From a bacterium (lineage in GTDB: Bacteria; Patescibacteriota; Saccharimonadia; Saccharimonadales; UBA4665): a DNA stretch of 64,000 nt. The stretch spans positions 27,794 through 91,793 of the forward strand of contig JAJZMC010000007.1 in assembly GCA_021803105.1 (NCBI GenBank), in the 5' to 3' direction. Made by a program: the position numbers and the translations under genes. Of this stretch, positions 1,473-64,000 are shown piece by piece; within the stretch, counting starts at the first letter, position 1, and every line of letters starts with the position of its first letter. The notes beneath the pieces were generated by a model. That model ran no database searches. It had not been told where the DNA came from and was given only the letters and a program-made list of their open reading frames with translations.

Positions 1473-1473
1473 T

Positions 1474-38946: not shown

Positions 38947-40408
38947 TGTTGCTCGCCAATAGAAATGTCCGGATTTGCGTTCAATAGAAATGTCCAGTTT
39001 TTTGGTATGATCCTATTTAAAAAATAGGAGGATTTAATGCCAGAAATAATAAGGTTATCTCAAAAAGAACTGAACCAAGTTAGTGTCATAAAACAAGTAG
39101 CTGAAGGTAAACTCAAGCAAATAGAAGCAGCTGAAAGTTTAGATATAACAGACAGACAAATAAGAAGGCTACTCAATAAATATAGAGATGAAGGTAATAA
39201 AAGTTTTGCTAATAAATTAAGAGGCAGACCTAGTAATCACCAACTGGATAAGGGTTTTAAAGATAAAGTAATTAAGTTAGTTAAAAACAAATACCCAGAC
39301 TTTGGTCCAACCTTTGCAGCCGAAAAACTTAAGGAATTGGACGGTATTAGTATATCTGTATCTACTTTAAGACGCATAATGGTAAATAATGACGTTTGGA
39401 GAGAAAAAAGGCGTAAGAAACCTATTCACAGAACCAGGAGGCCTAGGCGTTCATGCTACGGAGATATGGAACAATTTGACGGCTCAAGCCATGACTGGTT
39501 TGAGGGTAGATATAACCATGGTGAATATACTACATTACTAGCTAGTATTGACGATGCTACGTCTATAGTTAATGCTTGGTTTAGTGACTATGAAGGGACT
39601 GTGCCTGTCATGAAGTTTTGGTGGGGGTATTTTGAGAAATATGGTAAACCTCACAGTATTTATCTAGATCGTCACAGCACATACAAAGTTAACTCTAAAA
39701 ATGCACTAGATAATGACAGCATCGTATCTGAATTTACTAGAGCCATGAAAGAATTAGGCGTACAGGTTATTAATGCAAATAGTCCTCAGGCTAAAGGTAG
39801 AATAGAAAGATTATTTGGAACCCTGCAAGACAGATTAGTAAAAGAGCTCCGCCTCGCAGGTATTAATAATCCTAATGATGCCAATAAATTTTTGCAAGCT
39901 TATTTACCTAGGTTTAATGCCAGGTTTAACGTTGAGGCTACCAGTAGCACAGATACTCACGTTATGTTATCTAAGCAGTACGATCTTAACTCAATCCTGT
40001 CTGTTCAGTCTGTACGCATTGTTAGTCGTGACTTTGTGGTTAGCTTTAAGAACCATTGGTATCAACTATCTAAAGATCAGCCTACTACAGTTTATCCTAA
40101 TAGTAAGGTAATCATTGAAGAGAGGTTAAATGGTAATTTATTGATACGTCTCAATAGCAAGTATCTAAACTACACTAAGCTAGACATTAAACCACGGAAA
40201 CCTAAAGTACTAGCCCCAGTTTTAGCCCCTAATCCTACTAAAAGACCTTATAAGCCATCAGCTACTCATCCGTGGAGAAGTATTAGGTTATTACCCTACA
40301 ATATTAGTAATAGACCGAATCAAACACCACCATCAAAGAAAATTACTTAAAAACGAATCCGGACATTTCTAAAAGTTTAAATCCGGACATTTCTACTGAA
40401 TTTCAACA
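38947..40408 (+). mobile_element. insertion sequence (rve/DDE transposase, TGT termini; IS481-like or ISNCY-like), copy 1
   Basis: The imperfect terminal inverted repeats both start with TGTTG. Each end carries two copies of the subterminal motif (A/T)AGAAATGTCC(G/A)G. These sit at 38959-38975 and 38984-38998 on the left, with the mirrored copies at 40357-40372 and 40381-40396. It has a single transposase ORF. No target-site duplication is visible. Confidence 0.8.
39037..40350 (+). CDS. IS transposase (N-terminal HTH + integrase-core DDE domain)
   Basis: It is 437 aa and preceded by AGGAGG. The HTH reads ITDRQIRRLLNKYR. Catalytic-core-like segments are MEQFDGSSHDW, IYLDRHSTYK and ANSPQAKGRIERLFGTLQDRLVKELR. 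By eye it is about 65-70% identical to the ORF at 45312-46637. Confidence 0.9.
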   Translation: MPEIIRLSQKELNQVSVIKQVAEGKLKQIEAAESLDITDRQIRRLLNKYRDEGNKSFANKLRGRPSNHQLDKGFKDKVIKLVKNKYPDFGPTFAAEKLKELDGISISVSTLRRIMVNNDVWREKRRKKPIHRTRRPRRSCYGDMEQFDGSSHDWFEGRYNHGEYTTLLASIDDATSIVNAWFSDYEGTVPVMKFWWGYFEKYGKPHSIYLDRHSTYKVNSKNALDNDSIVSEFTRAMKELGVQVINANSPQAKGRIERLFGTLQDRLVKELRLAGINNPNDANKFLQAYLPRFNARFNVEATSSTDTHVMLSKQYDLNSILSVQSVRIVSRDFVVSFKNHWYQLSKDQPTTVYPNSKVIIEERLNGNLLIRLNSKYLNYTKLDIKPRKPKVLAPVLAPNPTKRPYKPSATHPWRSIRLLPYNISNRPNQTPPSKKIT

Positions 40409-45249: not shown

Positions 45250-46727
45250 TGTCACCGCAAAGTTAAAATGTCCGCTTTTCTGCACAATAGAAATGTCCGC
45301 TTTTAGTTTATTTAAGTTATTTTTTTAGATAATGGTTTATGTTTAGGATTACTAGAAATATTATATGGAAGTAGAGTGAATTTACGCCATGGATGATTAG
45401 AACTTGGTGTAGTGTAGGTTCGTGGTTTTTTTAGGTTAGGATTACTTGTTAAGGCAATTGGTGGTTTTTCAGTTATAACAGGTTTAGTAGTTAACTTAAC
45501 ATAGGTTAAGTAATAGTTACTTAGTCTTATATAAATTGTATTATCTAATCGTTCTTCGATTGTTACTTGAGCTTTTGGTAATACTAATGTTGGTTGTACT
45601 TTTGTTAGTTGTAGCCACTGATTCTTAAAACGGATAGTGAAATCTTCATTGATGTATCGTTTTGTTTGAACTGATAAAATAGCTATTAAATTGTCCCTGG
45701 TAGTGACTGGACGATGAATGTCAATATCAGATCGTGGAGTTACAGAAAATCGAATATTAAAAGCTGGTAGAAATTTATCCTGGAGAAATATATTGGCTTC
45801 TTTTACATCATTAATATTAGCTAATCTTAACTCTTTAACTAAACGATCTTGTAAGGTACCAAATAGATTCTCTATTCTTCCTTTAGCCTGAGGGCTATTG
45901 GCATGAATAACTTCAACATTAACCTCTTTCATAGCTCGTTCAAATTGAGTAATCATAGCATCGTCATCAAGAGCATTTTTATCATTAACTTTATAGGTAC
46001 TATGACGATCTAAATAGATAGTGATTGGTTTACCATAAATCTTAAAGTAATCTCGCCAGAAGATCATAACTGGTTTAGTTCCTTCATAGTCTAAGAACCT
46101 AGCATAAATAATATTATTAGCATCATCTCTACTAGCCAGTAGTGTTGCCCAGGCTCTATTAGGTAATCTACCTTCAAACCAATCATGATGACATCCATCA
46201 AATTGTTCCATGTCTCCATAACAAGCTCTCCGTTCTCGACGCATACGATGAATTGGTTTACGTTTTTTATGTTGCCAGATACCTTCTTTAATCATTAGAT
46301 TACGGAGTGTTTCATGGTTAATATTAAGGTTATCTCTTTCAGCTAATTTCTCAGCAGCAAAAGTTGGCCCAAAATCTGGATATTTGGTTTTAACCAATTC
46401 AATTACTTGGTCTTTAATTGTTTGTGATAAACGATTATGACTAGGATTACCTCTTGCTTTATGAGCTAGTCTAGCGGTACCTTCAGCTCTGTATTTAACT
46501 AACATACGTCGGACTTGACGATCAGTTAAACCTAGACTTAAAGCGGCATCTTTTTGAGTTATTGTTTTATTAATAATTCGTTGCAACATGGTTGCTCGAT
46601 TAAGTTCTTTGGAACTTATTGTATGTATATGGTTCACTTAGATTGTCCTATCTTTTAGTTGTTTCTGTAACTAAGGATAGGACATTTTAACTTTGCGCAA
46701 ACCGGACATTTTAACTTTGCTTTCACA
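45250..46727 (-). mobile_element. insertion sequence, copy 2 (same type as copy 1, diverged), flanked by a perfect 16-bp direct repeat
   Basis: The ends are TGTCACCGCAAAGTTAAAATGTCCG... (45250->) and the reverse complement TGTGAAAGCAAAGTTAAAATGTCCGG... (46727<-). Each end has two AAATGTCC subterminal motifs. TAAAAAACTGATGTGG occurs at 45234-45249 and again at 46728-46743. Confidence 0.88.
45312..46637 (-). CDS. IS transposase (HTH + integrase-core DDE domain)
   Basis: It is 441 aa and colinear with the 437-aa transposase (MEQFDGCHHDW, IYLDRHSTYK, ANSPQAKGRIENLFGTLQDRLVKELR). Confidence 0.9.
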   Translation of the reverse strand: MNHIHTISSKELNRATMLQRIINKTITQKDAALSLGLTDRQVRRMLVKYRAEGTARLAHKARGNPSHNRLSQTIKDQVIELVKTKYPDFGPTFAAEKLAERDNLNINHETLRNLMIKEGIWQHKKRKPIHRMRRERRACYGDMEQFDGCHHDWFEGRLPNRAWATLLASRDDANNIIYARFLDYEGTKPVMIFWRDYFKIYGKPITIYLDRHSTYKVNDKNALDDDAMITQFERAMKEVNVEVIHANSPQAKGRIENLFGTLQDRLVKELRLANINDVKEANIFLQDKFLPAFNIRFSVTPRSDIDIHRPVTTRDNLIAILSVQTKRYINEDFTIRFKNQWLQLTKVQPTLVLPKAQVTIEERLDNTIYIRLSNYYLTYVKLTTKPVITEKPPIALTSNPNLKKPRTYTTPSSNHPWRKFTLLPYNISSNPKHKPLSKKIT

Positions 46728-48707: not shown

Positions 48708-49064
48708 GCCAGATTATTGACCGATCGCGTACTTTTAAATACGAGGAAAGTCCGGGCAGCAAAGAGAGTGATAGTCGTTAACGACGACCAGATGTGAATC
48801 TAGGGAAAGTGCCACAGAGACAATACTATCGTTATTTTGACGGTAAAGGTGAAAAGAGCGGTGTAAAAGACCGTAGTTTATATTGGTGACATTATAAAGA
48901 GGTAAACCCTATCAGCTGCAAGGAGATAAGTTTTAAGTTTTTACTTTAGTTTCTCGCTAAACTTATCGATTTATCCGCTTGAATTTATGAGTAATTATAA
49001 ATCTAGATAGATGATCGGTAATCTTATTTTAAGATTACAGAACCCGGCTTATAGATAATCTGGC
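48708..49064 (+). ncRNA. rnpB: RNase P RNA (bacterial type A)
   Basis: The universally conserved P4 strands GAGGAAAGTCCGGGC (~48744) and ACAGAACCCGGCTTA (~49038) are present. The terminal P1 pairs GCCAGATTAT (48708-48717) with ATAATCTGGC (49055-49064). AGGGAAAGTGCCACAGA is also conserved. Confidence 0.92.
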
Positions 49065-49069
49065 TATTA

Positions 49070-51008: not shown

Positions 51009-51398
51009 ATGTTTGAGGTTAAAAAATATATAAAAAAATATCGTTTAATTAAGTTTCTGTTATTAGTAATATCAGAAATTATTTTTTTTAGTACCATTAA
51101 TCCATATAGTAGTCAAACAATCGTATTAGTGATTGGCGTAGCATTTGTTGTAGTGGATTATTATTTGCTTGTTAATTATATTGTGAGCTATTTAGCTAAA
51201 ATTTATAAAGTTATTTTTAATCAAAAAAAGAGAATAGTTTTATTTTTAACCGTAATAGGGAGTTTATTTATCATTTTAAAATCGTTGGGACAGTTGAGTA
51301 TTAATGATGTTTTAGTAATTATTTTATTATCAATAATAGGGTACAGTTATAGTTGGTATGCCTCTGATCAAAAAAAGAGAATAAAAAAGAATTTTTAA
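51009..51398 (+). CDS. small polytopic membrane protein (4 predicted TM helices)
   Basis: It is 129 aa, almost entirely hydrophobic, with a basic C-terminus (QKKRIKKNF). It is the first gene of the operon. Confidence 0.6.
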   Translation: MFEVKKYIKKYRLIKFLLLVISEIIFFSTINPYSSQTIVLVIGVAFVVVDYYLLVNYIVSYLAKIYKVIFNQKKRIVLFLTVIGSLFIILKSLGQLSINDVLVIILLSIIGYSYSWYASDQKKRIKKNF

Positions 51399-51428
51399 CT
51401 ATAGTTTTTTAAAGATATAATTATATTT

Positions 51429-51809
51429 ATGGATAATCAGCAAATACTTAAAGATGATCTAACGTTACCAACACCTCAAAGTAACGATATGATGGTTGAT
51501 GATAATAATACTTCTTCTCCAACAAAAGTTGTTAACTCAGCATCAGAGCAAGATAATAGTTCACAAGTTAATAGATCTAATTCTAATGACGTAATTTCTG
51601 ATAGTCCTATTTCTGTTAATCAAGATCAATCTATTGTTAACCAAATTTCAATAGAAGATAATGATTTAATAGACAAAGAATGGATTAATAGAGTAAAAAA
51701 TATTATTGAAGCTACTAGAGGTAATCCTTATAAACAATCGCAAGAAATAAATGCTTTAAAGGCAGAATTTATACTAAAGAAGTATAATAAAGTTATTAAG
51801 GTAGAATAA
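51429..51809 (+). CDS. hypothetical protein (polar low-complexity N-terminal half, helical C-terminal half)
   Basis: It is 126 aa. Its stop lies 2 nt before the ATPase start, which implies co-translation. Confidence 0.5.
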   Translation: MDNQQILKDDLTLPTPQSNDMMVDDNNTSSPTKVVNSASEQDNSSQVNRSNSNDVISDSPISVNQDQSIVNQISIEDNDLIDKEWINRVKNIIEATRGNPYKQSQEINALKAEFILKKYNKVIKVE

Positions 51810-51811
51810 TT

Positions 51812-54800
51812 ATGCAAGTAGCTATGTATGTTATTGGTGTTTTGCTAGTGATAGTGGTTATAGCTGGTTTTATAATATTTTTACAATCAAGAAAAATATT
51901 TAGAGAACAAAAAAATCTTGAAAGAGGTCTTAAGACTATTTCATTATATATTCATTTACCACCTCCGAGTGATGATATAGAGGTTAATGGTAGAGATATA
52001 AGAGACGTAACTCAAGAAACTATTTCTAAGGCTGAAATAATTTATAGTATATTGGCAAGTACCGTAAAAAAGGGTTTCAAAACAAATTATTACGGTCAAC
52101 GCCATTTTTCTTTTGAAATTGTTGGAACTAAAGGATATGTTTATTTTTATGCCAGTGTCCCAATCTCACTAATCGAGGTGGTAAAGCAAGCAATAAGTAG
52201 TGCTTATCCGACGGCTCGCTTGGAAGAAATTTCTGACCATAACATATTTAGTCAGATAGGTAAGTCTACCGGTACTTTAGGTGGTGAACTTGAACTTAAG
52301 GAATCTTTTGCTTTCCCAATAGCAACTTATCAGGAACTTAAACGTGATTCAATGTCATCTTTACTTAATGCTTTATCAACTTTAAATAAAGAAGATGGTG
52401 CTTCTATTCAGTTTTTAATTCGTCCAGCTAATAGTTCTTGGACAAAAACTGCTCATAGTTTATCTAGTAAAAAAAGAAAGGGAACTGATAAAAAAACTGG
52501 TTTTACTGATTATTTAAAATTAATAATACTAGCTTTTTCTAAATCACCAACAGAACAAAAAAATAATGCTGATGATAAACCTAATCTATCTAGCCTAGAT
52601 CAATCGATAGTTGATGCTATTGATGATAAAACTAAAAATCCAGGGTTTGAAACTTTAATTAGGATAGTGGTATCAAGTAATGTTTCTCAACGATCACAGG
52701 AGATATTGAACAATATAATAGCTACTTTTTCGCTATATAATGCTCCATCAAAGAATGGTTTTAAGTATTTACCGGCCAATGATATTGAAACTTTGATTAC
52801 TAGTTATATTTTGAGACTATTTCCTCAAGCTAAAAATAAAATGATTTTAAATTCAGTTGAGCTGGCAACCTTATTTCATTTTCCTGATCAAAGAAGTATT
52901 CCTACTTCACAATTAACAAGACAAACTTCACGACAAGTAGATGGACCACCGAATGTACCGGACAATGGTTTATTGCTTGGCTATAATGAGTTTAGAGGAG
53001 TTAAAAAACCCATCAGATTAGAACTTTCAGATAGACAGAGACATCTGTATGCTGTTGGACAAACTGGTGTTGGTAAATCTACTTTTTTAGAAAATTTAGC
53101 TTTGCAGGATATGATTAACGGAGATGGTTTCGCTTTTGTTGATCCTCATGGTGATACAGTAGAAAAATTATTAGCAATGACACCAGCTGAACGAGCTGAG
53201 GATATTATTTACTTTTCTCCGGCTGATATGGACTATCCTATGGGTTTGAATTTGTTTGAGTACAGTAATCCTGATCAAAAAGATTTTTTGATTCAAGAAG
53301 CCTTAAATATGCTTTATAAGCTATATGATCCTAATCACACTGGAATTATGGGACCTCGTTATGAAAATTTATTTAGAATGGCTGCTTTAACTATTATGGC
53401 TGATCCTGCTGGTGGTACTTTTGTTGATATACCTAAACTTTTTAGAGATCCTAAATTCGTTGAACAAAAACTTCAATACGTAACTGACACTAATGTACTT
53501 GATTTTTGGCGAAAAGAAATGCCAGCTTCTCAGAGGTCGAATGATTTTGGTGAAGTTGTTGCTTGGTTTGTTAGTAAATTCGGTGCATTTTTAAGTAATG
53601 ATATGATGCGAAATATTATTGGACAAACCAAGAGTTCTTTTAATATGCGTGAGATTATGGATAATAAAAAGATTTTATTAGTTAATTTAAGCAAAGGTCG
53701 TTTAGGGGATTTAAATTCAAAGTTACTTGGTATGATTTTTGTTATGAAGTTTCAGGTAGCTGCTATGAGTAGGACAGATATCCCAGAAAAAGAAAGAACA
53801 GATTTTTGTTTATTTGTTGATGAGTTTCAAAATTTTTCTACGGATAGTTTTGCTACTATTATGTCTGAAGCTAGAAAATTTCATTTAAATTTGATCGTAG
53901 CCAATCAGTTTACAACACAGTTAACAGAAGAAATTAGGGATGCAGTTTTCGGTAATATTGGAACGATTGTAGCTTTTAGAATCGGTCAGAACGACGTTGA
54001 AATACTTACAAGATATTTTCAGCCAATATTTAATGGAGATGATCTATTAAGGATACCAAATTATAATACAATAGTTAGGACACTTATTAATGGTGTTCCT
54101 ACTCAACCCTTTAGTATGGCTGCTTTACCGACTTTAGGTACACCCAATGAACGCTTAGCAGAGGCGTTAAAACAATTATCTGCAATAAAATACGGTAGAG
54201 TACGTAATATTGTTGAAAAAGAGATTGTAAAGAGAATGAGCGTGTCACAACCACCTGTTATGTCATCAACTAGACAGACTATAGGTAATGATTTTTCTGA
54301 TATTGCTAAACAATGGGGTCAAAATAGTGGGTTATCTGATAATCAATTACAACAACAGTTATCTGGTAATAATGAACCTGTTTCACCACCAGCTATCGGT
54401 CAAGTAAAATCATCATTTATAGATGATTGGTTAGCTAAGAGGAAAAAGTCCATGTTAAATTCTAATACTAACCCAATGGTTAATAGTGTTACTCCGATGT
54501 CATCACCATTTGATTTAGAAGATAAAAATATGATGGATATGAATTTTAATAAATCACAAGATATACCACAAACGAATCATACTAATCAGGAAAATGAGTT
54601 TAAGATTAAAAGAGATAATAATTTGACTTCTACTCAAAATATTTCTAGTGATGAATTACAAAAAGTTGAAATTGATCAAATAGCTTCAGTTTTAAAGGAA
54701 GATTTAAATATTAATAAAAATGATACATCTGTTGATAATGTATCAACAAACGTAGATAGCGAGATAAAAGATGATAACAGTGAGATTAGCATAGACCAGA

Positions 54801-54829
54801 ATGGTAATTTAGTGGTTAAGGATAAATAA
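51812..54829 (+). CDS. VirD4/TraD(TrwB)-like coupling-protein-like P-loop ATPase with a long polar C-terminal extension
   Basis: It is 1005 aa with one N-terminal TM helix. Walker A is GQTGVGKST, followed by AFVDPHGD, and Walker B is CLFVDEFQNF, followed by MSEARKFHLNLIVANQ and GNIGTIVAFRIG. The last ~230 aa are N/Q/S/D-rich. Confidence 0.72.
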   Translation: MQVAMYVIGVLLVIVVIAGFIIFLQSRKIFREQKNLERGLKTISLYIHLPPPSDDIEVNGRDIRDVTQETISKAEIIYSILASTVKKGFKTNYYGQRHFSFEIVGTKGYVYFYASVPISLIEVVKQAISSAYPTARLEEISDHNIFSQIGKSTGTLGGELELKESFAFPIATYQELKRDSMSSLLNALSTLNKEDGASIQFLIRPANSSWTKTAHSLSSKKRKGTDKKTGFTDYLKLIILAFSKSPTEQKNNADDKPNLSSLDQSIVDAIDDKTKNPGFETLIRIVVSSNVSQRSQEILNNIIATFSLYNAPSKNGFKYLPANDIETLITSYILRLFPQAKNKMILNSVELATLFHFPDQRSIPTSQLTRQTSRQVDGPPNVPDNGLLLGYNEFRGVKKPIRLELSDRQRHLYAVGQTGVGKSTFLENLALQDMINGDGFAFVDPHGDTVEKLLAMTPAERAEDIIYFSPADMDYPMGLNLFEYSNPDQKDFLIQEALNMLYKLYDPNHTGIMGPRYENLFRMAALTIMADPAGGTFVDIPKLFRDPKFVEQKLQYVTDTNVLDFWRKEMPASQRSNDFGEVVAWFVSKFGAFLSNDMMRNIIGQTKSSFNMREIMDNKKILLVNLSKGRLGDLNSKLLGMIFVMKFQVAAMSRTDIPEKERTDFCLFVDEFQNFSTDSFATIMSEARKFHLNLIVANQFTTQLTEEIRDAVFGNIGTIVAFRIGQNDVEILTRYFQPIFNGDDLLRIPNYNTIVRTLINGVPTQPFSMAALPTLGTPNERLAEALKQLSAIKYGRVRNIVEKEIVKRMSVSQPPVMSSTRQTIGNDFSDIAKQWGQNSGLSDNQLQQQLSGNNEPVSPPAIGQVKSSFIDDWLAKRKKSMLNSNTNPMVNSVTPMSSPFDLEDKNMMDMNFNKSQDIPQTNHTNQENEFKIKRDNNLTSTQNISSDELQKVEIDQIASVLKEDLNINKNDTSVDNVSTNVDSEIKDDNSEISIDQNGNLVVKDK

Positions 54830-54832
54830 TAG

Positions 54833-55411
54833 TTAAATTTTTTTGAATAATCTAATTATTAGTTCAATTAGTAGTCCAAGAATAAAACCACCTATAAAGA
54901 AAATGAAAAACCAAATAAAATTGTATGTGATACCAACATACTTTACAAATATTAGATAACTTAAACTACCAATAAATGCTAAGATTGCTCCTCCTAGTAC
55001 ACCGGATGGTCTAGCTATTGTTGTGCTTGTTTTATCACTGACCTGATCTATTATTGGTTGATGTATGATTTTACTAAGATTTCTATCAACTATTGGTAAA
55101 CGGTGTCTGATATTATTAAATATTTGTTTAGTTGATATATTAACTAGGTTTTGATCTACATAACGATTTTCTTGTAGTTTTTCTTGTTTAAAAGCATCGA
55201 GTTCATTCTCATTATTGTTAGTTTCTTCTTTAATAATTTCACGAGTTTCTTCTAGCTTTTCATTTTCTAGATTAGTTTCGTTAGATAGATTAGCAGTTTC
55301 ATTTTCTAGCGCATGTGTTTTTTCTATTTGTTCAGAGGTTGGTAAAAGTAATTCTTTTTCTCCTTCTGGTAATTTAAGTTCTTCTGGTATATTTAATTGT
55401 TCTGCTGACAT
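54833..55411 (-). CDS. hypothetical protein: acidic coiled-coil N-terminus with two C-terminal TM helices
   Basis: It is 192 aa with an E/N/L-rich N-terminal half. The C-terminus reads GGAILAFIGSLSYLIFV...FIWFFIFFIGGFILGLLIELII. It is convergent with the ATPase gene, with only 3 nt between the stops. Confidence 0.5.
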   Translation of the reverse strand: MSAEQLNIPEELKLPEGEKELLLPTSEQIEKTHALENETANLSNETNLENEKLEETREIIKEETNNNENELDAFKQEKLQENRYVDQNLVNISTKQIFNNIRHRLPIVDRNLSKIIHQPIIDQVSDKTSTTIARPSGVLGGAILAFIGSLSYLIFVKYVGITYNFIWFFIFFIGGFILGLLIELIIRLFKKI

Positions 55412-55428
55412 TTTATTATTTCTCTTTT

Positions 55429-57087
55429 TTAGATTATGTTATTTTGAAGCGCTAAGTCAGATTCTTTGGCGAGTAATCTAGATCGAGCAAAGAAGTAACC
55501 GATAACTGTTACTATTAATGCGGCAATGAAGATATCGTTTCCTGGACCAGTATTAACAAGTGTTGTTGAAGTTGTGGTCGTCTCAATTGTTTTAATAATT
55601 GTAGCAGGTAAATGTATGATTATAGTGTTACCGTATACATTAGTCATTTCGAGGTTGTAATAGCCTGGATCTGAAGATGAAGTAGGAGTTTGAGGAATTG
55701 GGCTCATCACTTTAACGGCTACTTTTTCGGTTGCTGTGGAGTTAGGAGCAATATTAATAGCTGGCCATGTTATTTGATTAGAACTATTAATTGTTCCACC
55801 GTATTTATTTACGATCGTTGAGTAATCAAGAACATCACTTAGATTATCACTAAAAACGTAGTTTTTAATTGGTGCTAGACCGGTGTTATCAGCATAAAGA
55901 GTATAAATAATTTCATTATTAGGTTGAGCAGTTGTTCCATTAGCATTAGCGATGTTTTGAGTAATATTAGCAGCGGTTTTATATACTTTAATACAAGCTA
56001 TACTGTCTTGACTATTAATACTGGCTTGGCAGGGCTTACAATTAGGACTTGAAGCGGTTAAGCTAGCATTATACTTACAGGTTGGCGGTGTAGGTGGTGG
56101 TGAATAAGGTGTAGTCGGTGGTTGACTTGGTGTGGCAACTGTCATACAAACTTGGTTACTGTTTAGAGGTGTTGTTTCGTTAGAGCTTATAGTTGCTATA
56201 TTACAGATTTGAGTACCAGGAGTGACGTTAGGGTTAATTTTAACTCTTAGGTCTATATAATAATTAGTGGCTCCAGCGGGTAAAGTGTTATATACCCATT
56301 GTGCTTGATTAGTTTGAAAATTATTTGGTACAACATTAGCTCCTCCAGTTCCAAACCAAGTGTATGTTGTATTATTTGGTAATGGATCAGATATAACTAC
56401 GTTTTTAGCTTCACCACCAGTATTCGAAAAAATTAAACGATAGGATAAAGTTTCGTTTGGACTAACAATACTACCATTAACTGGAAAGCCTGGAGAGGTG
56501 GTTTTACTGATTGTTAAATTTGGTGCTTGAGGTAAACCAATCGATACTAAGTTACCACAAGTGTAGAGTAAAAAGTATGTTGTGCCATTAGAGGCTGTTA
56601 ATTTAATTGCTTGATAATTTGATGAACCAGCTGTATCCCAGGCCCATAAATATCTAAAATAATAAATGGTTCCAGCTACAATAACAGGTGTTTCTCCGGT
56701 TAGATTATAAGGTAATCTTCCCATTGAAAATAGTTGCTTATTGTATGAGTCAGAGTTAAGAGTTATCGTTGAACCTGAGGCTATATCTTGACAGGTAATG
56801 TTATAGTTAGCCAGAATTGTACCGTAATTTTCAATGTTATTGTTACAAAGATTAACAGCTTGTGAGATAGAAGAAAAGCCTCCATTTATTAAATCATTTG
56901 GTGAAGCTGCTATTGTTGGTTGAGGAGGACTTATAAAGGCAAAGAATTGAACAAAAAAAGCTAATATAATAAAAATAAAACTAATTCGTCTAATACTGGA
57001 CTCTTGTCTCATTCGTTTACTGTAAAATGATATCTGACTGGTGATGTTTGGATTATATGGTAGTAGTGATAGTAATTTTTTTAACAT
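55429..57087 (-). CDS. secreted or cell-surface protein with DUF11-type repeats, a Pro-rich/Cys-rich linker and an LVNTG + TM + basic C-terminal sorting-like signal
   Basis: An N-terminal signal-anchor is present (ISFIFIILAFFVQFFAFI). Two segments resemble the conserved repeat domain (LSYRLIFSNTGGEAKNVVISDPLPNNTTY and IIYTLYADNTGLAPIKNYVFSDNLSD). The linker reads PSQPPTTPYSPPPTPPTC. The C-terminus reads TTLVNTGPGNDIFIAALIVTVIGYFFARSR. Confidence 0.65.
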   Translation of the reverse strand: MLKKLLSLLPYNPNITSQISFYSKRMRQESSIRRISFIFIILAFFVQFFAFISPPQPTIAASPNDLINGGFSSISQAVNLCNNNIENYGTILANYNITCQDIASGSTITLNSDSYNKQLFSMGRLPYNLTGETPVIVAGTIYYFRYLWAWDTAGSSNYQAIKLTASNGTTYFLLYTCGNLVSIGLPQAPNLTISKTTSPGFPVNGSIVSPNETLSYRLIFSNTGGEAKNVVISDPLPNNTTYTWFGTGGANVVPNNFQTNQAQWVYNTLPAGATNYYIDLRVKINPNVTPGTQICNIATISSNETTPLNSNQVCMTVATPSQPPTTPYSPPPTPPTCKYNASLTASSPNCKPCQASINSQDSIACIKVYKTAANITQNIANANGTTAQPNNEIIYTLYADNTGLAPIKNYVFSDNLSDVLDYSTIVNKYGGTINSSNQITWPAINIAPNSTATEKVAVKVMSPIPQTPTSSSDPGYYNLEMTNVYGNTIIIHLPATIIKTIETTTTSTTLVNTGPGNDIFIAALIVTVIGYFFARSRLLAKESDLALQNNII

Positions 57088-57797
57088 AATTTTATGTGTT
57101 TCTTTAAATTTAATGTTTATTCATTAGTTTAATGTAAACATAAAGTTACTATTTATACAATAGAGGTTAATGGTATTAAGATTTAAATTACTATTTTATG
57201 TTTATGGTTAAGATGTTAGTTGTTTATAATAGTATATAGTAAAAATAACAGCAGATGAATAATTAAAAACAGGCGAGGCATTTTATTAAGAACATAAGTT
57301 TATATGATTGAATACACTAATATGTTGTAAATTAAGACAGTATTTTTAATCAATAAGTGTTGTTATATTGTCTATATATTAATATTTTTATGATTTTTTG
57401 ATAAAACTGGAGCTATTTTTTCCCAAAATCGTAGTATTATTCACACCTGTGTATAACTGTTATTAATAACATTTAATTAATTATTTAATGTTAATTAAAT
57501 AAAATATTAATTAATAATTTAAGTTATTTCTACAATGAAGTAATTTATTACTTCTTATGTAGTAATAAATAATATAAATTAGTTAATCTAATATTGAATA
57601 AATAATAAGTTATTTAAGTTAATATTGTTGTTCTAATATAAACAAACATTAGCTTTATTAATTTATTTAATTAAACTGACTAATTTATTAAGTCTTTTTA
57701 TCTTGTTAAAAGGGTAGTAATAATACTAAAATGGATTAAGTTATTATTCACTTAAAGTTAATAAATTAATAAATACTAAAATATAAACAATAAACAA

Positions 57798-60700
57798 ATG
57801 CCACCTAACAACGATTACTCTGGTCTTAAAACTCTAGAAGACTCTCCTAATATCTCTTCACTTAATCCCATAACTAATTCTAACTACACTAAACCTAAAT
57901 GGTACTCACTAGCCTATAGCTCTCATAAGAAACTATTAATATCTCTAATAGTAATATTAGTTATATTTCTATTATCTGGTTCTTATGCCATCTACAGACT
58001 AACAGCTAATACTAAAGCTAATACACCAGTATCTATTAAAAACAATATTAATCCTACACTACCTCAATCTACTAATGGACTACTACCACCTAAACAACAA
58101 GTCTTAGTAGTTAACTCTAACTTAAAGGTTAATGCTAATACTGCTCTTCAAGGTACTCTAAATGTTACAGGACTAGTTACCTTACAAGGTAATGTAACCA
58201 TTACTGGTACTCTAAATGTTTTAAAGAATGGTACCTTTAAAGGTAACAATACTTTCTCAGGTACTAATACCTTTACTAATAACTCTACCTTTTCTGGACC
58301 AACTAACTTTACTAATACTAACAATACTTTCTCAGGACTAACTATCTCCAACAATGGACTAGTAGGCGGTATATTAAAAGTAGCTAGTGGTAGTCTAGTA
58401 CTAGGTAATCCAGGAACTACTCTAGGTTCCTTATCTTTTTCTCAAACTAACTCAACTAATTTATCTAGCTTAACTATTTCTAATCCTTTATCTCTTGGTA
58501 AAGTAAACTATGTCTTACCATCAATCAGTGGTAATTCTTCTGATACTATTTGTTTAGCTAATCTAAGAAACTGTTCAGCTGTTGGTACTTCAGGTGGTGA
58601 TTTAACAGGCAACTACCCAAGTCCAACTATCGCTAAACTCCAAGGAACTACTCTAACTCTATCTACTCCATCAACTGGACAAGTTCTAGCCTACAATGGT
58701 ACTGCCTATATTAATACATTAATTACTAACACTAACCTAACAGCTGGTAGTTATACTAACATCACTGGAGTAGGAGTCTTATCTTCTGGTTCTATTGCTT
58801 CTGGCTTTGGTCCTATCTCTACTACTAACAACATATCTACTACTGCTACTATTAATGCTGGAACACTTAGTGTTAGTGGTAACTCCACACTCTCAGGAAC
58901 ATTAACTGTTAGTGGTAACTCACTACTAAGTAGTAACTTAAACGTTAATGGTACCTCCACTCTTTCTGGTCCACTAATAGCTAACTCTACTACATTATTT
59001 AAAGACTTAACTAACTCTACTACTGCCTTTCAAATACAGAATGCTAATTCAGCTAACATACTAACTGCTGATACTACAACTAATACTATTAACCTAAACG
59101 GTAACCTAAACCTTAACCAAGTATCGGCTCCTACTACTGCTCCAACAGTTGCTATTAATACTACTGCTGGTAACCTTAACTCTACTTATTACTATGTCTA
59201 TGCTTATATAACACCAAGTGGTATTACTAATTATTCTCCAGTCTCTTCTGGTGTAGCTCCAGTCTCTCAACAAGTTAATGTTACAGTCTCTGCTTCATCT
59301 AACAACCTAGTAACTGGTATTAATATCTATCGGACTATAGCTGGAGCTACTAACTCTGGACCATTCTATTTAGTTAACTCCACTCCACTATCTAACGTAA
59401 GCCAAACATATGTAGACAATATAGCTGATAGTTCATTAGGAATAGCTAGTAGTGATATTAATAATAGTGCTAACTTTAAAGTTAATGGTAGCTCAGTTCT
59501 AATTATTGATCCTAACAACTACAATACTGGAGTAGGACTTAATGTGTTAAAGAGTAATAGTACGGGCTTATCTAACTCAGCTTTTGGCTTTAATGCTCTT
59601 GAATCTAACATTACCGGTTCTGACAATACTGCTATAGGAGCTTTAGCTCTTCAGTCTAATACTACCGGTTATTCAAACACCGCTATCGGACTTAACGCCT
59701 TACAACTTAACACCACTGGCTACCAAAACACTGCTGTTGGCTTTCAATCTCTTCAGGACAATACCACTGGTGTTAATAATGCTAGCTTAGGCTATCAGGC
59801 TCTTCAAGCCAATACTACCGGTTATTCAAACACCGCTATCGGACTTAACGCCTTACAACTTAACACCACTGGCTACCAAAACACTGCTGTTGGCTTTCAA
59901 TCTCTTCAGGACAATACTACTGGTTATTCAAACACCGCTGTCGGACTTAATACCTTACAACTTAACACCACTGGCTATCTAAATACAGCTCTAGGTTTAG
60001 GTGCTTTACAGTCTAATACTACCGGTACTTATAACACGGCTTTAGGAGCAGGTGCTCTTCAATATAATACAACTAGTGGCAGTAATACTGCCTTTGGAGC
60101 TCAAGCTCTTCAAGAAAATACCACCGGTTATAATAACACTAGTGTTGGTATGAATGCCTTACAACTTAACACCACAGGTTATCTAAACACATCTCTAGGT
60201 CTTGCTTCGTTACAATCTAACACCACTGGCTATACTAACACGGCTTCTGGAGCTTTAGCTCTTCAAGGCAATACCACTGGTTACCAGAATACCGCTCTAG
60301 GCTATAGTGCTTTATATTCTAATACCACTGGTGGAACAAACACTGCTCTTGGTCAAAATGCTCTCTATGCTAATACTTCTGGTAACTCAAACATAGCTAT
60401 TGGTTTTGGAGCAGGTTATACCAACACTGGAGCTAATGCCAATACCACAGGTTCTAATAACACATTCCTAGGATATTATTCAGGACCAGGAACTACTACT
60501 CAACTTAACAATGCTACAGCTATTGGTTCTAATGCAGTTGTAGATACTTCTAATTCTCTAGTTCTAGGATCAATAAGTGGAGTTAATGGAGCTACTGCTA
60601 GTACTAATGTTGGTATAGGAACAACTTCACCGAACGCTGCACTAGAAGTTACTACTGGTGGAGGTGGTGTAAATAATAATGGGATTTATGTTTATGATAG

Positions 60701-63700
60701 TCCAAATGTCGGTTATTCTACTTTGAGTGTCTATAATAATTGGCTTGATGGTCACGGTGGCAATAATTTTCAAATTCAAAATGCATCAGGTTCATTATTT
60801 ACGGTTAATAATAATGGTTATGTTGGTATAGGAACAGCTAGTCCACAAGATAATTTAAGTATATTTGGAGTACAAAATTATAATAGTGGTTTAGAGTTAA
60901 ATGGTAATAGTAGTGGTGGTGTAGGTATGTCAATTGAAAATACATCTTCTGGGGGTCATAGTTATGCAATTTTATCCGGAGGCGCTGCTAATGGAGTTGG
61001 TGTAGGTGCGTTTGGTATATATGATGAAACTACAGGTGCTTATCGTCTGACAATAAATCCTAGTGGTAATGTTGGTATAGGAACAACTAGTCCAACTCAA
61101 ACTTTAGATGTAGTAGGAAACACTCTACTTCAATCAGCTACTAACTCTACTACTGCCTTTCAAGTACAGAATGCTAGTGGAGCTACTATATTAAATACTG
61201 ACTCTAATCCACTAACTGCTAATAATGTTGGTAGTACTAATTGGACTACTACTTCTTCATTACCAAAAGCTTTATATGATGGTAACTCTATTACATATAA
61301 CGGCTATATATATGAAATAGCAGGATTTAATAGTTCTTCCGTTTATTATGCTCCAATTAACCTAGACGGTTCAGTTAGCTCTTGGACTACTACTACCTCA
61401 TTACCTCAACCACTAGAAGGAGCTAGAGTAGTTACTTACAATGGTTATGTCTATGTGATGGGTGGATATAACGATAGTTCAGGAACTGTTCAGTCCACTG
61501 TCTACTATGCTCAAATCAATCTAGACGGTTCAATAGGTACTTGGTTATCTGCTACTAACTTACCACAAGCCTTATGGCAACCAACTGCTGTTGTTTACAA
61601 TAACTATATATATGTTATAGGTGGTAATAACACTACTGCTTCTACTACTGATCAATCCACTGTCTACTATGCCCCAATTAACTCTGATGGCTCTGTCGGC
61701 ACTTGGACTACTACCACCGCACTACCACAGACATTATACGGTGCTACTTCTGTTATCTATAATGGTTACATTTATGAAATAGGCGGTACAAATAGTACGG
61801 TTGTTCAATCCACTGTCTACTATGCTCCCATTAACTCTGATGGCTCCGTTGGTACTTGGACTTCTACTACTGCCTTACCTCAAGCACTTCAAGCTGATAA
61901 CTCCGTTGTCTATGATGGTTATATTTATGAACTTGGTGGTTACAACGGTTCTTATCAGTCTTCTATTATCTATTACGCTTTAATAAATTCTAATGGTTCA
62001 ATTGGTAATTGGAGCACTAGTCCTATTACTCTTCCACAAGCTTTATATGCTGCATCAGCTTCCGTCTATAATGGCTATGTCTATGAAATGACTGGTTTAA
62101 ATAGTAGTGGTGTTAGTCAATCTGCTGTTTACTACACTCAACTACTGAATGGTAGCTCATCAATAGAGCAGGGTAGTCTTACTCTTAATGCTGGTACTAC
62201 TATAACTGGACCAACAACTCTACAGAATACTACTAACTCTAATACGGCCTTACAAGTTAACAACAGCAATGGTGGTTCTATATTAAATGTTAATTCTAAC
62301 CCTCAAACATATACTAATGCTGGGATAACGAATTGGAATAGTACGAGTGGATTACCACAAGGAATAAATAGTTCTACCTCTGTGTCGTATAACGGCTATA
62401 TATATGAATTAGGAGGATACACTAATAGTTTGGGTTATCAATCCACTGTCTACTACGCCCCTCTAAACTCCAATGGCTCCGTGGGCACCGGGATCTACAC
62501 CACCGCCTTACCCCAGGCATTAGATGGTACAGCCTCAGATGTATATAATGGATATGTATATATATTGGGAGGTCAAAATTCATCTAATACTATTCAATCC
62601 ACTGTCTACTACGCCCCTCTAAACTCCAATGGCTCCGTCGGCACCTGGATCTCCACCACCGCCTTACCCCAGGCATTAAGTAGGTCTACATCCTTGGTAT
62701 ATAACGGCTATATATATGAATTTGGAGGTGATAATAGTGCTTATCAATCCACTGTCTACTACGCCCCCTTAAATTCCAATGGCTCCGTCGGCACCTGGAT
62801 CTCCACCACCGCCTTACCGCAATCTATAGACTTTATTTCTTCAGATGTATATAATGGATATGTATATATATTGGGAGGTCAAAATTCAAGTGGTGCTTAT
62901 CAATCCACTGTCTACTACGCCCCTCTAAACTCCAATGGCTCCGTCGGCACCTGGATCTCCACCACCGCTTTACCTCAAACACTTAGGGGGGCGACGTCGA
63001 GTATTTATAATGGTTTTATCTATGAAGTTGGTGGAGATAACGGATATACTTACAATTCCACCGTCTACTACGCCCCTCTAAAATCCAATGGTTCAGTCGG
63101 CACTTGGAATAGCACTGTCTACTTACCTGAAACAGTATCTTATGCAGCGTCGAGTATTTATAACGGATATATATATGAGCTAGGAGGAGGCTTATCTAAC
63201 GGATCAATAGTTCCTAATGTCTATTACGCTCAATTTTTAACAGGTAATTCAACTCTGCAGGGTAGTCTAACTTTTAATGCTAGTCTAAATGTATCAGGAC
63301 CAACAGTCTTACAAAATGCTATTGATTCAGTTAATGCCTTTCAAATAAACAATAGCACTGGTGGTTCTATTTTGTCTGTTAACTCTACACCAGTAACGAC
63401 TACTACTGCCGGAACAACGGCTTGGAATACAACAACTAACTTACCACAAGCGTTAAATAGCCCCACTTCAGTAACATACAACGGTTATATATATGAATTA
63501 GGCGGACAGGAGACATCTGGAACTATAATCAGTACAGTTGAATATGCTCCTCTAAATTCCAACGGCTCAGTTGGTGCCTGGACCTCCACCACCGCTCTAC
63601 CCCAAGCATTGTGGCGCGCTACTTCTGTTGTCTACAACGGTTATATTTATGAAATAGGAGGGGATGATGCTGGTATTTATCAATCCACCGTCTACTACGC

Positions 63701-64000
63701 TCCCTTAAACTCCAACGGCTCAGTCGGTACCTGGACCTCCACCACCGCCTTACCCCAAGCATTAGGTATTGCTACCTCCGTAGTCTACAACGGCTATGTT
63801 TATGAAATAGGAGGATATAACGGTACTGCTATTCAATCCACCGTCTACTACGCCCCCTTAAACTCCAACGGCTCAGTCGGTACCTGGACCTCCACCACCG
63901 CGTTGCCGCAGATTACATTTGTTGCCACTTCAGTAGTATATAATGATTATGTCTATGAGATAGGGGGTAGCAACGGTAGTGTTAATTATTCATCGGTCTA
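57798..64000 (+). CDS. giant membrane-anchored surface protein (>2,067 aa, 3' end outside the window): beta-helix/tail-fibre-like stalk plus at least 3 tandem six-bladed Kelch-type propellers
   Basis: It is absent from the ORF track because there is no stop in the window. Hand translation from ATG 57798 gives MPPNNDYSGLKTLED...KKLLISLIVILVIFLLSGSYAIY (the TM helix). This continues as NTALQGTLNVTGLVTLQGNVTITGTLNV... and then DLTGNYPSPTIAKLQGTTLTL.... I checked the same frame at 62400 (IYELGGYTNSLGYQSTVYYA) and at 63951 (VYEIGGSNGSVNYSSV). The only ORFs listed in this 6.2 kb are three short ones, either out of frame or antisense. Confidence 0.85.
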   Translation, partial: MPPNNDYSGLKTLEDSPNISSLNPITNSNYTKPKWYSLAYSSHKKLLISLIVILVIFLLSGSYAIYRLTANTKANTPVSIKNNINPTLPQSTNGLLPPKQQVLVVNSNLKVNANTALQGTLNVTGLVTLQGNVTITGTLNVLKNGTFKGNNTFSGTNTFTNNSTFSGPTNFTNTNNTFSGLTISNNGLVGGILKVASGSLVLGNPGTTLGSLSFSQTNSTNLSSLTISNPLSLGKVNYVLPSISGNSSDTICLANLRNCSAVGTSGGDLTGNYPSPTIAKLQGTTLTLSTPSTGQVLAYNGTAYINTLITNTNLTAGSYTNITGVGVLSSGSIASGFGPISTTNNISTTATINAGTLSVSGNSTLSGTLTVSGNSLLSSNLNVNGTSTLSGPLIANSTTLFKDLTNSTTAFQIQNANSANILTADTTTNTINLNGNLNLNQVSAPTTAPTVAINTTAGNLNSTYYYVYAYITPSGITNYSPVSSGVAPVSQQVNVTVSASSNNLVTGINIYRTIAGATNSGPFYLVNSTPLSNVSQTYVDNIADSSLGIASSDINNSANFKVNGSSVLIIDPNNYNTGVGLNVLKSNSTGLSNSAFGFNALESNITGSDNTAIGALALQSNTTGYSNTAIGLNALQLNTTGYQNTAVGFQSLQDNTTGVNNASLGYQALQANTTGYSNTAIGLNALQLNTTGYQNTAVGFQSLQDNTTGYSNTAVGLNTLQLNTTGYLNTALGLGALQSNTTGTYNTALGAGALQYNTTSGSNTAFGAQALQENTTGYNNTSVGMNALQLNTTGYLNTSLGLASLQSNTTGYTNTASGALALQGNTTGYQNTALGYSALYSNTTGGTNTALGQNALYANTSGNSNIAIGFGAGYTNTGANANTTGSNNTFLGYYSGPGTTTQLNNATAIGSNAVVDTSNSLVLGSISGVNGATASTNVGIGTTSPNAALEVTTGGGGVNNNGIYVYDSPNVGYSTLSVYNNWLDGHGGNNFQIQNASGSLFTVNNNGYVGIGTASPQDNLSIFGVQNYNSGLELNGNSSGGVGMSIENTSSGGHSYAILSGGAANGVGVGAFGIYDETTGAYRLTINPSGNVGIGTTSPTQTLDVVGNTLLQSATNSTTAFQVQNASGATILNTDSNPLTANNVGSTNWTTTSSLPKALYDGNSITYNGYIYEIAGFNSSSVYYAPINLDGSVSSWTTTTSLPQPLEGARVVTYNGYVYVMGGYNDSSGTVQSTVYYAQINLDGSIGTWLSATNLPQALWQPTAVVYNNYIYVIGGNNTTASTTDQSTVYYAPINSDGSVGTWTTTTALPQTLYGATSVIYNGYIYEIGGTNSTVVQSTVYYAPINSDGSVGTWTSTTALPQALQADNSVVYDGYIYELGGYNGSYQSSIIYYALINSNGSIGNWSTSPITLPQALYAASASVYNGYVYEMTGLNSSGVSQSAVYYTQLLNGSSSIEQGSLTLNAGTTITGPTTLQNTTNSNTALQVNNSNGGSILNVNSNPQTYTNAGITNWNSTSGLPQGINSSTSVSYNGYIYELGGYTNSLGYQSTVYYAPLNSNGSVGTGIYTTALPQALDGTASDVYNGYVYILGGQNSSNTIQSTVYYAPLNSNGSVGTWISTTALPQALSRSTSLVYNGYIYEFGGDNSAYQSTVYYAPLNSNGSVGTWISTTALPQSIDFISSDVYNGYVYILGGQNSSGAYQSTVYYAPLNSNGSVGTWISTTALPQTLRGATSSIYNGFIYEVGGDNGYTYNSTVYYAPLKSNGSVGTWNSTVYLPETVSYAASSIYNGYIYELGGGLSNGSIVPNVYYAQFLTGNSTLQGSLTFNASLNVSGPTVLQNAIDSVNAFQINNSTGGSILSVNSTPVTTTTAGTTAWNTTTNLPQALNSPTSVTYNGYIYELGGQETSGTIISTVEYAPLNSNGSVGAWTSTTALPQALWRATSVVYNGYIYEIGGDDAGIYQSTVYYAPLNSNGSVGTWTSTTALPQALGIATSVVYNGYVYEIGGYNGTAIQSTVYYAPLNSNGSVGTWTSTTALPQITFVATSVVYNDYVYEIGGSNGSVNYSSV
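59571..60480 (+). repeat. in-frame 51-nt (17-aa) tandem repeats, about 17 units, consensus (Y)xNTA(I/L)GxxALQxNTTG
   Basis: Example units: SDNTAIGALALQSNTTG, YSNTAIGLNALQLNTTG, YQNTAVGFQSLQDNTTG, VNNASLGYQALQANTTG and so on. The array contains a perfect 107-bp duplication (59658-59764 = 59811-59917), offset by 153 bp, which is 3 units. Confidence 0.9.
61240..64000 (+). repeat. in-frame ~150-156-nt Kelch-like blade repeats arranged as six-blade modules (61240-62150, 62331-63235, 63421->64000)
   Basis: The blade consensus is W(T/I)(S/T)TTALPQAL...S(V)VYNGY(I/V)YE(I/L)GG.N....QSTVYYAP(L/I)NS(N/D)GSVGT. The modules are separated by a linker motif, (T/V)LQN....S..A(L/F)Q(V/I)NNS.GGSIL.VNS, which also appears at ~59020 and ~61140. 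Confidence 0.88.

Follow-up and report, generated by a model that had tools for sequence, protein, structure and literature searches.

Little is known about the means by which ultrasmall Patescibacteria locate a suitable host cell and stay attached to it. Published work on host finding in this group names type IV pili and some vaguely described 'adhesins' (PMC10633639, PMC11665869, PMC11623550); for Saccharibacteria, the literature lists a type IV secretion system and a few lectin-like proteins besides type IV pili as host-interaction factors. A characterized surface fiber of a bacterium living on other bacteria is the 'mosaic adhesive trimer' (MAT), displayed on the surface of the predator Bdellovibrio bacteriovorus and built from intertwined trimeric β-helices (Caulton et al. 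2024, PMC10769870). MAT fibers have a capping-loop consensus, V-G-G/N-π-x-x-P-x-x-x-L, and end either in Peptidase_S74, which is the trimerizing intramolecular chaperone of tail fibers, or in adhesive tips that can be swapped; one such tip binds glycans of the prey (PMC10769870). Here we describe a giant gene at the end of a 64,000-nt stretch of DNA (the window; positions 27,794 to 91,793 of contig JAJZMC010000007.1, GenBank assembly GCA_021803105.1, GTDB lineage Patescibacteriota, Saccharimonadales). The 5′ part of the gene, 2,067 codons on the plus strand, occupies window positions 57798..64000, whereas its 3′ end lies outside the window. We propose, with a probability of roughly 0.6, that the gene encodes a surface-displayed, membrane-anchored trimeric fiber in which Kelch propellers serve as lateral multivalent binding modules.

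The original prediction, made by a model from the letters of the window without database searches, described an open frame from ATG 57798 to the window edge and named an in-frame stop or frameshift among the findings that would count against it. Translation of 57798–64000 gave 2,067 codons without a stop, and a stop-free run of this length in DNA this AT-rich cannot be due to chance. The nearest upstream stop in the same frame is at 57777, and ATG 57798 is the sole start codon downstream of it. The open reading frame (ORF) lister did not report the gene because the frame exceeds the window edge, as the prediction had recognized. Internal repeats of the gene share 73–83% DNA identity, barring one 153-nt block at 96%, making assembly collapse unlikely. 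The visible codons would represent the first two-thirds or so of the gene. All six parts that the prediction had read in the protein are present at about the expected positions, with weak support for the second, a stretch of short β-helix-type repeats. The protein is extreme in composition: threonine, serine, asparagine and glycine make up ~50% of the residues, lysine and arginine ~1.3%, and aspartate and glutamate 3.1%. N-x-S/T sequons are enriched (98 versus 63.9±6.6 in shuffles that preserve composition), and a repeated NTTG motif accounts for some of the surplus.

The distal part of the visible protein consists of Kelch propellers. A blade hidden Markov model (HMM) combined with blade anchors yielded groups of six, six and four blades at amino acids (aa) 1154–1462, 1518–1825 and 1880–2066, the last group meeting the window edge. 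This agrees with the predicted three or more complete or partial six-bladed modules joined by a recurring linker, the linkers being ~56 residues long. Propeller 1 (61230..62150, plus strand like all features of the gene; aa 1145–1451) has six blades and is delineated by Pfam, AlphaFold2 and Foldseek; propeller 2, also six-bladed (62322..63242, aa 1509–1815), by the blade HMM and anchors; and the first four blades of propeller 3 (63411..64000, aa 1872–2067), which is cut by the window edge, by the blade HMM. Linker 1 (62151..62321, aa 1452–1508; …GSLTLNAGTTITGPTTLQN…ALQVNNSNGGSILNV…) follows a pattern that recurs before propellers 1 and 3, and linker 2 (63243..63410, aa 1816–1871) has the same set of motifs.

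The Kelch part is matched by the Pfam families PF24681 (Kelch_KLHDC2_KLHL20_DRC7; 113.8 bits against a cut-off of 50, three stretches) and PF01344 (Kelch_1; 83.4 bits against 20.1, six stretches), and its sequence matches in PDB include KLHL12 (2e-14), KEAP1 and designed six-bladed SAKe proteins. AlphaFold2, run on aa 1085–1530 with a 22-sequence alignment of modules from the giant protein and its relatives, modeled aa 1145–1450 with a predicted local distance difference test (pLDDT) score above 90, whereas both flanking linkers scored ~35. A Foldseek search with the modeled propeller 1 retrieved six-bladed Kelch domains (E ~1e-19, target TM 0.80–0.84, rmsd 2.3–3.4 Å). Thus, the Kelch assignment of the original prediction holds up both in Pfam and in the predicted structure, and the propellers are genuine six-bladed Kelch domains.

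Each module opens with a lone '…NW' strand (W1149, W1513, W1876), and blade 6 has no fourth strand of its own. The first strand of a module completes the last blade, so that the entry and exit points of the chain lie at one and the same blade, an arrangement that suits side-decoration on a continuing fiber. The blade framework (LPQ, YNGYIY, GG, VYYAP, NG, W) is near-invariant, in contrast to the residues that follow LPQAL and the GG doublet, which vary strongly. By the general pattern of Kelch domains, the loops at these variable positions would form the ligand-binding face. The closing blades of modules 1 and 2 are the most alike, the other blades showing only weak positional correspondence, which suggests duplication of whole modules followed by homogenization within them. 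The GC content at third codon positions (GC3) is uneven along the gene. It is 0.38–0.50 in the body of propeller 2 and 0.45–0.57 in propeller 3, compared with 0.17–0.25 in the linker between them, 0.11–0.23 in codons 1–1465 taken as blocks, and mostly 0.15–0.23 in 15 other genes of the window that were examined (three are at 0.25–0.32). Smaller rises are found in the 17-residue repeats described below (aa ~600–720, to 0.32–0.38) and, briefly, in propeller 1 (0.35). Such a patchwork fits propeller cassettes having been imported or exchanged at conserved connectors; it could also be produced by biased gene conversion between the repeats.

The putative stalk contains two kinds of repeat. The first is an array of ~18 tandem 17-residue 'NTAIGxxALQxNTTGxx' repeats (59523..60440, aa 576–881), which keep a strict register from aa 593 to ~881 and are preceded by one degenerate unit at 576; the prediction had counted about 17. 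TRF reports periods of 51 and 153 nt for the array. The 153-nt block, comprising three 17-residue units, is duplicated at 96% identity (59646–59924) within the otherwise diverged array, which points to a recent in-array duplication. In a tblastn search with aa 100–1150, 92 phage records were matched with 35–49% identity and E-values down to 2e-55. They come from pelagiphages, roseophages, cyanophages and Bacillus SPO1-like phages, the matched proteins are annotated as tail fiber, tail spike/tailspike or 'intramolecular chaperone auto-processing domain protein', and all matches fall on aa ~565–945. PHROGs families of tail spike and virion structural proteins were matched at 1e-50 to 8e-58, and phrog_4636 'tail spike protein' at 1e-49. 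As judged from these alignments, the array is homologous to phage tail fibers. The predicted likeness to tail fibers is thus upheld by both searches. No Hep_Hag or YadA-head family is among the Pfam hits of the giant protein at E ≤ 0.1. The array has no sequence homolog in PDB, where the stalk profile A3 reached MAT structures only via its GIG part. In an AlphaFold2 single-chain model of aa 430–1150, the array forms a regular solenoid with pLDDT of 65–80.

The second kind of repeat is the GIGTTSP-type segment foreseen in the original prediction (60573..61229, aa ~926–1144). It comprises three 'NVGIGTTSPxxxLxV' units, at aa 938, 1009 and 1092 (NVGIGTTSP or NVGIGTASP), together with 'AFQVQN' motifs, and resembles the β-helix of MAT fibers. 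A single-sequence search of PDB with aa 561–1150 returned one match, the Bd3182 fiber of B. bacteriovorus (8ojn, E 7.8e-4). A profile built from 15 sequences of 'GNVGIGTTSPxxxLxV' from the giant protein and its relatives matched five MAT crystal structures, 8ond (Bd2133; 2e-15, three stretches), 8oml (6e-11), 8ojn (Bd3182; 3e-9), 8ol4 (4.5e-8) and 8on4 (3.5e-4), the remaining matches being the designed ThreeFoil (5.4e-4) and Lon211 (0.81). A larger stalk profile gave the same outcome. The motif of the giant protein fits the MAT capping-loop consensus except that the proline lies one residue further from the valine. On this profile evidence, the GIGTTSP units are homologous to the trimeric β-helix of the Bdellovibrio prey-recognition fibers. 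As an AlphaFold2 monomer, the region is modeled with pLDDT of only ~40.

The giant protein belongs to a family. A search of 5.8 billion proteins yielded 52 giant homologs of 1,374–3,573 aa, 29–66% identical to the query over parts of its length; those with a named source are all from Saccharimonadales, Saccharibacteria or Patescibacteria. A scan of species-representative genomes found 16 related loci, 15 of them in metagenome-assembled genomes (MAGs) of Saccharibacteria. Most homologs have a hydrophobic helix at aa ~10–160. The blade HMM recognized six-blade groups in 19 homologs, with between one and four in each, and up to five propellers are present in the ~3,700-aa protein of genome locus L005. 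At three loci (L004, L007 and L011), the encoded proteins of ~1,450 aa have 18 Kelch blades in direct succession, uninterrupted by long linkers. In several loci (among L014, L013 and L018), two or three large fiber-type genes (900–3,700 aa) lie side by side; the giant gene of L014 appears split into three overlapping ORFs, possibly by frameshift errors. Modules shift position between proteins (query aa 315–863 align to 1620–2175 of homolog P0002), and Kelch modules occur alongside LVIVD repeats, a GH85_C-like stretch and, in precomputed Pfam lists, CBM_4_9. By these comparisons, the family is truly mosaic. The propeller cassettes are bounded by conserved connectors, '…NSTTAFQVQNAxGxSLFxVD…' before and '…VYYTSTxRxxxxGSLDLVG…GGSLTAGNTxIVGxLxV' after the cassette.

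The homologs also indicate what may follow beyond the window edge. In complete relatives, a further 200–1,400 residues of other modules follow the last propeller. The prediction had placed the propellers at the tip of the fiber; the window cuts the gene at this point, and the propellers of relatives are internal, with C-terminal ends of other kinds. Peptidase_S74 is present in the precomputed Pfam lists of six homologs. In one homolog, P0014, a Kelch propeller and a GIG unit occur together with an N-terminal anchor, and the sequence 'TSDRRLKKNI' at its C-terminus conforms to the SDxxxK motif. Because S74 is a trimerizing chaperone, the Kelch-bearing members that carry it are very probably trimers, a reading that follows from homology only. 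Seven homologs (P0001, P0003, P0008, P0011, P0033, P0041 and P0051) share a different C-terminal domain of ~120 residues with two cysteines and the ending 'YYWVIE', which has no Pfam annotation in the precomputed lists; related ends (…YNYFxxQ / FDYFIAQ) are found in P0012, P0013 and P0037. In many members of the family, this domain may mark where the protein really ends.

Taken together, these features suggest the following model. The N-terminal helix would anchor the protein in the cell membrane, with the remainder exported. The stalk would be assembled from building blocks of tail fibers and MAT fibers, namely the 17-residue solenoid and the GIGTTSP β-helix units, and is most likely an intertwined homotrimer because these units are shared with both kinds of fiber. 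The propellers would be side excursions, in which the chain leaves the fiber axis, builds a propeller and returns via a connector of ~56 residues. In a trimer, each level would then have three propellers, which makes no fewer than nine in the visible part. By rough extrapolation from the 550 Å model of Bd3182 (922 aa), fibers of this family would measure some 60–100 nm. The propellers are proposed to bind a component of the host cell envelope, either a glycan or a protein, as the tips of tail fibers and MAT fibers do. Specificity would reside in the variable blade loops, and the repertoire could diversify by module shuffling and import. The membrane-anchored, fiber-type surface protein of the original prediction is supported.

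Several observations weigh against this model. A Foldseek search with the stalk model (aa 430–1150) gave no matches at E ≤ 0.001. That the GIG region and the linkers are modeled with low confidence as monomers would be expected for strand-swapped trimers, but disordered linkers would produce it equally. Kelch domains can also be enzymes, and the Kelch part has weak, sub-threshold matches to NanM (2e-11; 43.8 bits, cut-off 45) and to a permuted mutarotase model. The membrane-proximal part, with an apparently uncleaved anchor after a 44-residue tail, is unlike that of MAT fibers. No Shine–Dalgarno sequence is recognizable 5′ of the start codon, which is equally the case for several other genes of the window. 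The distal end of the gene was not recovered from any collection searched: an exact 46-mer from the end of the window is absent from the metagenome collection, and protein-seeded scans of GTDB genomes and JGI metagenomes returned only relatives, at no more than 55% identity. The role proposed for the family relies on sequence analysis and, in the window, on a truncated gene.

An alternative that we regard as unlikely, although deserving of attention, is that the gene encodes a giant monomeric envelope or coat protein, an S-layer-like protein or spacer fibril that shapes or protects the cell surface or mediates non-specific adhesion. The extreme composition and the sequon excess are typical of heavily hydrated or glycosylated coats, genes for large surface proteins cluster in relatives, and the linkers are modeled with low confidence as monomers. 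However, the homology of the stalk units is specifically to receptor-binding fibers that are trimeric, and some family members carry the S74 trimerization chaperone. A Pfam scan of the giant protein revealed no S-layer domain (SLH or similar), and the high mosaicism and variability of the family would be unexpected for a structural lattice protein.

The matches to NanM and the permuted mutarotase raise the question of whether the protein is instead a surface-tethered enzyme or an effector-delivery arm, with catalytic Kelch domains (mutarotase/galactose-oxidase-like) or a C-terminal hydrolase or toxin. The GH85_C-like stretch and CBM_4_9 in relatives would be in keeping with such a function, as would the giant proteins of predatory Omnitrophota, which have been proposed to degrade cell walls (10.1101/2023.11.21.568195). 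Yet no catalytic domain scored above threshold in the 2,067 residues, the NCBIfam mutarotase model reaching 52 bits against a cut-off of 243, and the C-termini of the inspected homologs are small β-rich domains or S74 rather than recognizable toxins. Three tandem, fast-diverging propellers also fit binding valency better than catalysis. We consider an enzymatic or effector-delivery role improbable.

A phage or tailocin tail-fiber gene within a prophage would account for the strong similarity of aa ~565–945 to tail-fiber and tailspike proteins and for the occurrence of Kelch propellers in virion proteins of jumbo phages and in one tail-fiber gene of a Bacillus phage. The giant protein, however, has an N-terminal transmembrane anchor in place of a virion-attachment domain, and the 8 kb upstream contain no phage structural genes, the products encoded there being IF3, an AAA-type protein and a surface protein with DUF11 repeats; in the syntenic relative, genes for ribosomal proteins are also present. 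Furthermore, GC3 of the first 1,150 codons matches that of the host genome, and full-length relatives are chromosomal in many Saccharibacteria MAGs. A prophage origin is thus highly implausible, and we rejected it on account of the membrane anchor and the chromosomal neighbors. Least credible of all is a non-functional or artefactual ORF arising from misassembled repeats or pseudogene decay: short-read contigs break beside the gene and no identical copy exists in any collection searched, but the open frame of 2,067 codons in AT-rich DNA, the significant homologs of every module and propeller pLDDT values above 90 speak against it, and the divergence of the repeats, which makes collapse or chimaera unlikely, led us to discard misassembly.

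Upstream of the 17-residue array, the protein consists of an N-terminal tail, the anchor and several membrane-proximal modules. The tail (57798..57929, aa 1–44) precedes the sole hydrophobic helix, with HKK directly before it, and is presumed to be cytoplasmic by the positive-inside rule. The putative single transmembrane anchor (57930..57995, aa ~45–66, LLISLIVILVIFLLSGSYAIY) is indicated by Kyte–Doolittle scores of up to 2.65 in 19-residue windows starting at aa 41–51. The single helix of the original prediction is borne out by hydropathy. The next segment (58095..58487, aa ~100–230) contains short repeats of 6/12 residues, with a TRF period of 36 nt. This part of the prediction is weakly supported, with weak matches to Bactofilin (E 0.0035, below threshold), phrog_5070 (4e-5) and LpxD (E 0.19).

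A Cys-X6-Cys stretch and the 'DLTGNYPSPTIAKLQG...' (KLQG) module follow (58545..58727, aa ~250–310; the DLTGNYPSPTIAKLQG segment itself is at aa ~268–306). The module is 51–60% identical in the giant homologs P0042, P0047 and P0013, the first of which is labeled Ca. Saccharibacteria. This segment had been associated with large CPR/phage-fiber-like surface proteins; it is indeed common to large homologs, but the link to phage fibers was not borne out, as the module has no matches in the phage records and neither it nor aa 230–560 has sequence matches in PDB. Next is a compact β-sandwich domain (59118..59456, aa 441–553, …YYYVYAYITPSG…IYRT…), predicted by AlphaFold2 with pLDDT of ~90 and conserved in P0002, P0006, P0007 and P0009. 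Its only Foldseek match, a domain of the phage SPO1 capsid-entry chain, is marginal (E 6e-3). The homologs have at least three different membrane-proximal types. Four of them (P0001, P0008, P0011 and P0033) have a conserved Cys-rich cytoplasmic segment before the helix, MAAKKCLICNCSL(S/T)GRRDAKTC..RCRKRLQ, which by eye looks like a zinc ribbon. This segment, an unexpected intracellular module on a giant surface fiber, is absent from the protein in the window.

The window is part of a bacterial chromosome, with a class A RNase P RNA and three tRNAs. The RNase P RNA gene (48709–49067, 247.6 bits) lies between a gene for an RNase H/pterin dehydratase fusion and rplT. Other genes encode IF3, threonyl-tRNA synthetase (ThrRS), subunits of F-type ATP synthase, cytochrome oxidase subunit I and an AddA-like helicase-nuclease. 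For ThrRS, one database entry is 100% identical and the nearest relative is at 76%; most of the source-named matches at 62–65% are 'Candidatus Saccharibacteria/Saccharimonadales'. By its protein sequences, the organism is a saccharibacterium without a close sequenced relative, and an epibiotic lifestyle is therefore plausible. The prediction that the organism probably lives attached to a host is in line with this assignment, which rests on ThrRS and the related loci. In the relative closest by ThrRS (76% identity), the contigs shown end at or before IF3.

The giant gene is separated by an AT-rich intergenic region of 710 nt (57088..57797) from a divergently oriented gene for a 552-aa surface protein with DUF11/DUF7619/DUF7927 repeats. 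Promoter-like matches in this region are no commoner than in shuffled sequences and inverted repeats no commoner than in AT-rich shuffles; no phase-variation device is evident upstream of the gene. All Logan short-read contigs with the neighboring genes, which are present in sequencing runs such as SRR13190158, stop ~365 nt into the AT-rich spacer. Besides the 552-aa protein, the neighbors at 51009–57087 encode two small proteins of unknown function (129 and 126 aa), a 1,005-aa protein matching AAA_22, whose identical Logan copy bears DUF8128, and an unknown protein of 192 aa. Farther upstream, the gene content at ~24900–47500 resembles that of an integrated mobile element: this region contains a serine recombinase adjoining tRNA-Asn, a C5 DNA methylase, a Schlafen-type helicase, a VirD4/TraG-like coupling protein and two ~440-aa HTH_32 transposase-like ORFs (39037–40350 and 45312–46637). 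Two assemblies of the nearest relative lack the second of these ORFs in the syntenic region, and a third contig of this relative has a 446-aa HTH_32 gene in the same place.

The giant gene and its 50-odd relatives represent a concrete, testable candidate family for host recognition, in which the variable Kelch modules could encode host specificity. If the proposed fiber is real, sequence data might allow the host range of uncultured Saccharibacteria to be predicted, fragments of the fiber could be used as affinity reagents to fish out hosts, and the concept of the mosaic adhesive trimer, so far tied to one predatory genus, would come to include a large uncultivated radiation. Otherwise, the giant protein would be one more large repetitive surface protein. 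As a tentative and rather doubtful extension, in Saccharibacteria, and perhaps in other CPR epibionts, a class of host-range determinants not described before would consist of membrane-anchored trimeric fibers, in evolutionary continuity with tail fibers and MAT fibers, along which triads of six-bladed Kelch propellers are stacked as exchangeable receptor-binding cassettes that are traded horizontally. A fiber of this kind would display at least nine propellers here and up to fifteen in relatives, and phages, predatory bacteria and CPR epibionts would share one recognition toolkit.

Among known systems, MAT fibers (Bd2133, Bd3182, Bd1334 and others) invite the most extended comparison with the giant protein. 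Both have the 'GNVGIGTxxPxxxLxV' capping-loop/β-helix unit in the stalk, and both come from mosaic families with S74-ending and non-S74 members and with a stalk related to phage tail fibers. The differences are in size (~1,000 aa in MAT fibers versus >2,067 here and 1,400–3,700 in relatives) and at the N-terminus. MAT proteins have a signal peptide and a conserved β-rich N-domain of ~130 aa at a Gram-negative surface, whereas the giant protein has a 44-residue tail and a helix from aa ~45 that, by hydropathy, resembles an uncleaved anchor more than it does a signal peptide. The variable domains of MAT fibers are single C-terminal tips (TNF-like, C-type lectin or β-sandwich); the giant protein carries several Kelch propellers along the fiber, and no Kelch domain or propeller is mentioned in the description of MAT fibers (PMC10769870). 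MAT fibers are described as trimers, and the giant protein is a putative one. The stalk unit is common to both, the N-terminal arrangement differs, and the giant protein is at most a candidate member of the MAT superfamily.

Phage tail fibers and tailspikes with NTAxG-type repeats and S74 are related through the 17-residue array (35–49% identity) and through the S74 ends of some relatives. Unlike phage fibers, the giant gene is cellular, and its product is membrane-anchored, far longer and equipped with tandem Kelch propellers. When the Kelch module was compared with 50,697 phage records by tblastn, there was one weak match, a 'putative tail fiber protein' of Bacillus phage vB_BspM_AgentSmith (MW749006.1, 64279–65013; 26% identity, E 1e-6), which may be a phage tail fiber with a Kelch propeller. 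The six-bladed fold also occurs in Kelch virion proteins of the jumbo phages PhiPA3, Noxifer, Phabio, PS119XW and CBB (BFVD; Foldseek E 1e-17 to 1e-19), which are known only from predicted structures and mostly have one propeller in 300–700 aa. Trimeric autotransporter adhesins (YadA/Hia) are alike in the short Asn/Gly/Thr-rich β repeats of their head and stalk, and JGI labels two of the giant homologs autotransporter adhesins. However, autotransporters are anchored by a C-terminal outer-membrane barrel, and the giant protein by an N-terminal helix. Saccharibacteria are not known to possess an outer membrane. YadA_anchor is in no homolog's precomputed Pfam list, and we ruled out a trimeric autotransporter on the grounds of the missing Hep_Hag/YadA profiles and the anchor at the wrong end.

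Many consecutive propellers, with a proposed role in binding host or prey surfaces, are known from the giant RCC1 proteins of Oscillospiraceae (West-Roberts et al., 10.1101/2023.11.21.568195). Those propellers are seven-bladed RCC1 domains throughout, and the proteins have neither a membrane anchor nor a stalk of the tail-fiber type. In the literature searched, on Kelch proteins of Saccharibacteria, giant surface proteins, mosaic adhesive trimers and tail-fiber adhesins, we found neither a description of Kelch modules along a tail-fiber-type stalk nor one of MAT-type fibers in Patescibacteria or otherwise outside predatory bacteria. The original prediction knew of no characterized protein of this design. 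This is correct as far as a fiber bearing Kelch propellers is concerned, but the overall design does have a characterized precedent in MAT fibers (PMC10769870).

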